A stretch of 64,000 nucleotides of DNA from NCBI GenBank assembly GCA_964016885.1, contig OZ024745.1, positions 19,344,001 through 19,408,000 on the forward strand, in the 5' to 3' direction. Position numbers and translations under genes: made by a program. Of this stretch, positions 17,063 to 17,256 are shown one piece after another (positions within the stretch are counted from its first letter, which is position 1; each line of letters starts with the position of its first letter). Source of the DNA: Eledone cirrhosa (Eukaryota). Below the pieces are notes generated by a model. That model searched no databases, had not been told where the DNA came from, and saw nothing but the letters and a program-made list of their open reading frames with translations.

Positions 17063-17256
17063 ATAGGAACCAGTAAGACCCCGACAGCTGAGCTCAAGCC
17101 GTTTCGACGGCTAATTCTCAGAGAATTAGCCGTCGAAACGGCTTGAGCTCAGCTGTCGGGGTCTTACTGGTTCCTATTACCCACTCTACTACCTCAAGTA
17201 TTGAGTACTTTGGTGCGTTATGGTCCACCTGGTTCCTTACCACATTTCCTTCGTTA
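17063..17256 (+). mobile_element. Fold-back element family P1, copy A (3' half of a hammerhead; PLE pLTR-like)
   Basis: Perfect 57-bp arms 17063-17119 / 17121-17177, then an ~80-nt unpaired tail. Flanked by (TA)n. Confidence 0.75.

Follow-up and report, generated by a model that had tools for sequence, protein, structure and literature searches.

Palindromic stub insertions assigned to a Hydra-clade Penelope-like retrotransposon in Eledone cirrhosa, and their possible origin from two cDNAs joined head to head

The window analysed here is a stretch of 64,000 nucleotides of the Eledone cirrhosa genome (assembly GCA_964016885.1, contig OZ024745.1, positions 19,344,001 to 19,408,000 of the forward strand), and it contains four copies of a short palindromic repeat, P1. 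Copy A is a perfect palindrome of 57 + 1 + 57 nt at 17063–17177, embedded in a (TA)n tract, and one of its arms extends for 80 nt more, to about 17257. Copies B (19906–20103), C (36470–36676) and D (63349–63547) are found on the minus strand. The features are as follows.

16930–17062, no strand: (TA)n target microsatellite to the left of copy A; beyond 17257 comes a shorter run of TA
17063–17119, minus strand: tail-less arm of copy A, from 13 nt upstream of GAAA to TTCCTAT, with its outer end in (TA)n
17120, no strand: centre base of copy A, the head-to-head joint
17121–17177, plus strand: that portion of the tailed arm of copy A which the mirror arm repeats; its identity with the pLTR of the parent at locus L160 is 99%
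17135–17161, plus strand: 3′ half of a type I hammerhead in copy A, with GAAA, stem III with a palindromic loop, GUC (predicted cut after 17157) and the GGGG strand of stem I
17178–17257, plus strand: 80-nt “tail” of the Penelope-like element (PLE) in copy A, which in the parents runs on into the 5′ UTR and the ORF
19906–20044, minus strand: tailed arm of copy B
20049–20103, plus strand: tail-less arm of copy B
36470–36614, minus strand: tailed arm of copy C, beginning at the A 18 nt upstream of GAAA
36611–36676, plus strand: tail-less arm of copy C, inner limit approximate
63349–63482, minus strand: tailed arm of copy D, inner limit approximate
63482–63547, plus strand: tail-less arm of copy D, inner limit approximate

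As a first-pass annotation of this DNA had described, the short arm stops at TTCCTAT and the long arm runs 80 nt further, and both ends join (TA)n at TAT, in agreement with the (TA)n ending which that annotation implied. Its placement of the axis upstream of GAAA also holds, the distance in the four copies being 11–21 nt instead of about 15–20 nt. Over the shared stretch of about 43 nt, the arms of one copy differ from each other at 0–3 nt, against 3–10 nt between copies, and a comparison of the arms bears out that the variants named for copies A, B and D are common to both arms of each. These variants had been regarded as private to the copies; they are in fact subfamily markers, and type A alone is represented by 6,611 exact tail-less ends.

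A whole unit of the element is found at locus L160, where an inverted tailed arm (830 nt), a 5′-truncated copy, a pLTR, the tail, an ORF and a second pLTR, tail-less in (TA)n, are arranged in this order. The open frame (L160:3579–5936) has 786 codons with Met68 as the likely start, and its protein carries the reverse transcriptase (RT) motifs QFDIESYY, MGATDSAE and YRDDGL together with VIY..YIGLT, and was aligned with 7 homologues at 39–43%; 558 longer homologues were found. Because Pfam gave no useful match for the parent frames and the PDB sequences gave none at all, the identification of RT and GIY-YIG rests on these motifs. Judged by them, the single ORF combines a PLE-type RT with a C-terminal GIY-YIG domain, as in EN+ PLEs, and frames for RT and GIY-YIG flank the natural core region upstream and downstream. 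Partial-tandem pLTRs, an inverted 5′-truncated copy and a one-sided tail, all features of PLEs, are found at L160 and L128.

In the available text of Craig et al. (2021; PMC8557442), the Hydra clade is defined by DKT, RWK, a CxCx5C linker, CxxC and CxH around E and N, and the lack of CCHH. The L160 protein has DKT, RWR, CNCPDRSIC (CxCx5C), CNLC..E and N..CKH and no CCHH, its homologues have RWK/R at the RWR position, and the flanks of the copies place the insertions in (TA)n, again as in the Hydra clade. The Neptune clade, a first guess, was dropped against the clade definitions of the same paper, and Neptune and Nematis are both rejected since the linker is CxCx5C and not CX2-5CxxC, DKT stands in place of DKG, and CCHH is lacking. 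By motif definition, then, we assign the palindromes to a Hydra-clade Penelope-like retrotransposon, of which they are stub insertions, and we hold this assignment of family to be almost certain. The element adds a member to a known clade, and its architecture of inverted 5′-truncated copies, one-sided tails and (TA)n targets has already been published (PMC8557442; PMC3846280, both as far as their available text goes).

The 19-nt core of P1 has 62,608 exact matches in the 3.0-Gb genome and its reversed control has 0, so the core palindromes are not due to chance; one tail-end pattern alone has 20,512 matches genome-wide. Both end types and head-to-head joints are also present in raw Illumina reads from three other samples of one study, and the joints with tail stubs described below occur in raw reads from three samples of one study, and also among the contigs of another. 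Reads spanning the axis of copy A or B itself are few, because that axis is copy-specific. An assembly artefact is rejected, since the arms differ by substitutions and the joints occur in raw reads. In a second organism (run X5), 63% of the words of the parent and each of the two end types are found in the contigs, which means that the family either occurs also in a relative or has been transferred.

The 3′ half shared by the stubs (GAAA, stem III, GUC and the stem I strand) is a real hammerhead half, as had been proposed, and the parents carry the full hammerhead in the natural order of stem I, the core UUGANAA, stem II with a 36-nt loop, GAAA, stem III and GUC. It had been predicted that parents would read CCCC-CTGANGA upstream: CCCC and a 5′ core are indeed there, but the core is UUGANAA (UUGA(A/G/U)AA) and not CUGANGA. 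Taken literally, parents without CUGANGA upstream are precisely what the first-pass annotation had named as speaking against its model. CUGANGA upstream of the core gave 38 matches, and the 30 that were read are joints or pieces of other families, with no parent among them. Two of the CUGANGA matches revealed the natural upstream sequence, CCCC-TTGAAAAG, a variant with 783 exact matches, and other subfamilies have TTGAGAA or TTGATAA as the 5′ core.

The minimum-energy fold of the natural pLTR region is a three-way hammerhead junction, which with a z of 0.41 is not more stable than shuffles. The hammerhead pairing is kept in 87.6% of cells in 10 close copies, versus 32–60% when it is slid, with no compensatory change, and stem II has 11 pairs and is 88% paired. 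The pLTR thus contains a hammerhead, as expected of EN+ PLEs. U3-A8 hammerhead cores are known from Schistosoma PLEs (PMC4209133, available text). An Rfam scan of the 64-kb window gave 0 hits, the U3-A8-core hammerhead being missed in the stubs. In L160:3495–3610 and related long copies, the subfamilies are marked by a block in the outer part of stem I, flanked by GGGG and TTCC, and the putative priming site of the tail-less arm is where that stem ends. Most arms read through the GUC site and a few tailed arms start at +16 to +23; the ribozyme cut as truncation point is rejected, as there is no peak at +23. Non-LTR retrozymes, described as head-to-tail tandems in which every repeat has a complete type I hammerhead (10.64898/2026.07.22.740005, available text), are likewise rejected, the stubs being head-to-head with half a hammerhead and not tandem.

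For the statistics of arms, the first 100 core matches on contig C1 served as an unbiased set, corresponding to 79 units: 39 two-core palindromes, 22 single and 18 long. Loci L001–L030 (picked by identity) and L031–L060 (picked by CUGANGA) were left out of the pair, arm-extent and joint counts and serve as examples only, while all loci were used in the survey of arm contexts for partner motifs and in the count of long copies. All 39 palindromes have one tailed and one tail-less arm, and the distance between arms is 0.045 within a pair compared with 0.108–0.130 between insertions. In an overlapping set of 43 pairs (contig C1 pairs, tail-anchored loci and the window), every pair has one tail and 41 pairs have both arms from the same subfamily (mean 9.6 and maximum 20 after shuffling); the discordance of the other two amounts to one base. 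The arms of the 43 pairs differ at 1.5 positions on average, and 16 pairs are identical. These figures support the earlier proposal that the second arm is made at each insertion, and the same within-pair distance and subfamily sharing, set against those between insertions, exclude a fixed palindromic master element.

The inner ends of the arms are found in a narrow zone. In the young subfamily, 89 tail-less arms (from 90 of the first 100 listed places) were measured against L160: 69 of them end between −23 and −11 relative to GAAA, 9 further up and 11 further down, with a mode at −18. The ends are spread over about 12 nt and are not sharp, 8 of the 89 reaching −19 to −23. Tailed arms behave similarly, 41 of 61 ending 11–23 nt upstream of GAAA and none beyond −22, and solo arms end in the same zone. 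In filtered genome counts, 3,344 arms start at −17, 1,958 at −18 and 1,468 at −13, the filters being unequal. In L160 the first base of TATTTAAA is at −47, and A(−18) in TTAGT follows 29 nt later; TTAGT is replaced by TCAGT in 7 of 53 long copies. A gap of 29 nt is the spacing between a TATA box and an initiator.

Furthermore, an extra G is found at the inner end of the arms. The tailed arm of copy C has G before A(−18), where long copies have T or C, and G precedes A(−18), at −19, in 64 of 100 arms among the matches listed. Control arms, again among the matches listed, have a preceding G in 14 of 100 when they start at −17 and in 20 of 100 when they start at −13 (counts made by hand; Fisher p about 3e-13 and 3e-10, respectively). 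After dropping the rows in which the partner arm could supply the G, the proportions are 36/62 versus 6/71, and G occupies that position in 0 of 53 long copies. A second start at A(−13) is rejected, since G is found in only 20 of 100 arms there. An extra 5′ G is known as a cap mark of full-length L1 insertions (PMC11702581, available text), and in D. virilis too the promoter has been placed in the pLTR (PMC2377424, available text). That promoter is TATA-less, however, and this, like the spread of the ends and the higher count at −17, speaks against the start-site reading. From the DNA, the axis is probably the start of a capped RNA, nibbled during joining.

The joints between arms were counted in 61 clean cases, 28 of the 89 arms being left out because no partner was parsed or more than 13 nt lay between the arms. 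The tail-less arm reaches further in 30 joints, the tailed arm in 21, and both are equal in 10; 41 joints are blunt or overlap by 1–2 nt, and 33 have 0–1 nt. In 10 joints the tailed arm is without the GAAA core, and 6 of the 61 have a stub of tail only. In these 6, each arm has sequence absent from the other, and the tail-less arm still ends at the pile-up (with an extra G in L264). Among 330 arm contexts from all loci, 34 have no P1 partner motif. Some arms adjoin other repeat families head to head, with no TA between (L031, L045, L051, L032, L044 and L124); these come mostly from loci picked by CUGANGA, and the frequency is about 1 in 79 in the unbiased contig C1 set. These rare joints show that two distinct templates were copied at a single site. 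At L261, L231, L245 and L260 the joint contains templated repeats of the arm end, short ones of at most 48 nt, which resemble inserts made by polymerase theta or by RT slippage. A splice acceptor at TTTAG is rejected, as no upstream exon recurs among the joint inserts.

Our preferred reading, to which we give a probability of roughly 0.6, is that the stubs are two separately primed cDNAs of the front end of the RNA, joined head to head; two primings as such are highly probable. A pLTR promoter (TATTTA box at −47, initiator-like TTAGT/TCAGT) would give a capped RNA mainly from A(−18), within hammerhead loop 2, and the RNA would thus begin with the GAAA–GUC half only. The 5′ hammerhead half would be missing from the stubs because it was never in the RNA template. 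The GIY-YIG domain may then open both (TA)n strands, and with the two DNA ends as primers, reverse transcription would begin at a pair of UAU sites separated by 80 nt (+43 and +123), usually on RNA of one source. On running off the RNA 5′ end, both cDNAs would often gain an extra base copied from the cap, and they would then be linked by end-joining, with loss or gain of a few bases and in some cases after a short fold-back. Long copies may stem from read-through RNA of tandem parents. Two overlapping cDNAs might come from one RNA source by strand displacement, from two RNAs transcribed at one locus, or from both pLTRs of a single transcript.

The PLE studied in vitro, Poseidon of Anolis, is similar in several respects (Frangieh et al., 2024; PMC11167929, available text). 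Its protein, for which a dimer is predicted, nicks the two strands of AT-rich DNA and extends each of them, with two internal RNA starts that bound the tail, and uncleaved hammerhead RNA is preferred as template. Priming in vitro required no homology, which counts against the preferred reading, whereas both P1 starts have 3-nt target homology and lie in the 5′ UTR. The available text leaves the inverted arms unexplained and does not tie the inner ends to the RNA 5′ end. L1 twin priming resembles P1 in that both DNA ends prime on RNA, cDNAs are end-joined, an extra 5′ G is found, and two-RNA inserts occur occasionally; however, L1 cDNAs copy adjacent, mostly non-overlapping parts, while P1 cDNAs would copy the same stretch and so yield a palindrome (PMC11702581, available text).

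Other origins have to be weighed against two separate primings. A single cDNA might start from the tail end, reach the RNA 5′ end, turn back, copy itself to TTCCTAT and join the other (TA)n end, with the asymmetry of the arms produced by later trimming. Identical arms and one tail are thereby explained, the tailed arm is equal or longer in 31 of 61 joints, and self-priming has been proposed for PLE junction palindromes (PMC3846280, available text). Indeed, turn-around synthesis happens, as several joints (L032, L039, L044, L050 and L124) have fold-backs of about 18–47 nt before the jump. Pure fold-back from the tailed arm nevertheless fails because the tail-less arm is longer in 30 of 61 joints and 10 tailed arms are without the GAAA core; in the 6 joints with tail-only stubs, moreover, each arm has sequence that the other lacks and the tail-less end is still at the pile-up, and the joints are mostly blunt, have no loop, and in some cases lead to other families. 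We consider this origin unlikely. The first-pass annotation had proposed a more specific version, in which cDNA folds back and primes itself at the natural stem II hairpin. Stem II is real, with the 11 pairs given above, and the joints are located just beyond its 3′ strand; yet such a fold-back would keep loop 2, which is retained in 0 of 43 palindromes, the mirror arm copies the 3′ side and not the natural 5′ strand of stem II, and neither tail-only-stub nor mixed-family joints fit. That proposal is thus very improbable.

Alternatively, long inverted repeats might come first, the centre being deleted later and the arms homogenised by conversion, so that the axis is a hot spot of deletion or pausing. 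Palindromes are unstable DNA, long inverted pairs with arms of 300–830 nt exist (L095, L096, L145 and L160), and the ends are spread over about 12 nt. However, later deletion gives no reason for an extra G at one position or for solo arms ending in the same zone, it usually leaves microhomology, in contrast to the 33 of 61 joints with 0–1 nt, and the arms drift apart with age (mean 1.5 differences, 16 of 43 identical). It appears a little less probable still than the turning back of a single cDNA. Self-priming on an antisense RNA template, published in 2013 as a hypothesis for the head-to-head palindromes of rotifer Penelope elements (PMC3846280, available text), would allow the tail to be written in sense. 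The extra G at the sense 5′ end of the arms argues against it, as does the in vitro use of RNA across the pLTR–ORF junction with two starts bounding the tail (PMC11167929, available text), and it must be counted as very remote.

Two separate primings on a capped sense RNA, favoured by the P1 joints, differ from the antisense self-priming suggested for Penelope of Adineta vaga (Arkhipova et al., 2013; PMC3846280, available text), an element that shares with P1 the inverted pLTR, the one-sided tail, junction palindromes, and TATA and initiator-like motifs in the pLTR. Hydra-clade EN+ PLEs (PMC8557442, available text) are alike in the single ORF with RT followed by GIY-YIG, the motif set, the hammerhead in the pLTR, (TA)n targets, partial tandems, the inverted 5′-truncated copy and the one-sided tail. 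They differ in that their tails are typically 30–40 nt, compared with 80 nt here; the P1 unit is about 3.1 kb, has RWR, a U3-A8 core and a loop 2 of about 36 nt, and is present in very high copy number, mostly as stubs. With the PLE hammerheads of Cervera and De la Pena (2014; PMC4209133, available text), P1 shares the type I fold in the pLTR, the U3-A8 core (Schistosoma Cercyon), a palindromic loop 3 and a long stem II, and it differs in a stem III of 5–6 pairs and in a putative start site that splits the ribozyme.

The mechanism of PLE inverted repeats and tails was named an open question in 2021 (PMC8557442, available text), and the P1 joints suggest a testable answer to how PLEs make inverted ends. 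New here are the pile-up of arm 5′ ends 11–23 nt upstream of GAAA and the extra G at A(−18); no paper linking the palindrome axis to a start site or an extra G in PLEs was found among the open-access main texts covered. Under the preferred reading, a capped RNA should begin at A(−18), reverse transcription should be primed at +43 and +123, and the products should measure about 61 and 141 nt. The parent frame of L160, which seems intact, could serve for work in vitro, and the natural products of the family, numbering tens of thousands, have joints by which models of PLE inverted repeats can be told apart. More tentatively, PLEs in general might integrate by obligate double priming, in which a dimeric enzyme uses both cut ends and two fixed RNA sites and the inverted pLTR is the second cDNA; the start site would here lie inside the hammerhead, and the palindromes would be a genomic record of the capped 5′ end. 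If so, the RNA would have the 3′ hammerhead half in front and a whole copy at the back, a split ribozyme whose halves could pair across the molecule.

There are further palindromes and frames. A second palindromic family with TA-rich flanks (window positions 38190–38380 and 38940–39137) retains a complete hammerhead-like motif of the minimal type, with a UUGAAAA core, a short stem II and GAAA; nearly all of its 17 arm contexts begin within a few bases, three with G before the first A, and it may have the same start-site pattern as P1. A third palindrome, at 38585–38880, has arms of 144 nt with a CUGAAGA–GAAA minimal hammerhead-like motif at its centre, and in L044 a member of its family is joined head to head with a P1 arm. 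L031, L045, L051 and L234 contain a family with a CUGAAGA minimal hammerhead, three copies of which are head to head with P1 arms and have starts within a few bases. At 25949–26206 there is a 109-nt inverted repeat, 99% complementary, from a SINE-like repeat also present at about 17500–17600. Adjoining a P1 copy, L091:5930–7441 (plus strand) is a 504-codon frame that has Asn-rich stretches and the same CNCx5C linker but belongs to another PLE family. In the GIY-YIG frame of L066:3–524 (plus strand) the linker is of the Neptune- or Naiad-like form Cx4CxxC, so P1 shares its sites with other PLE clades. Finally, L128:8917–9852 (plus strand) is a 311-codon frame unrelated to the palindromes, which we take to resemble the C-terminal part of an RTE-type LINE.
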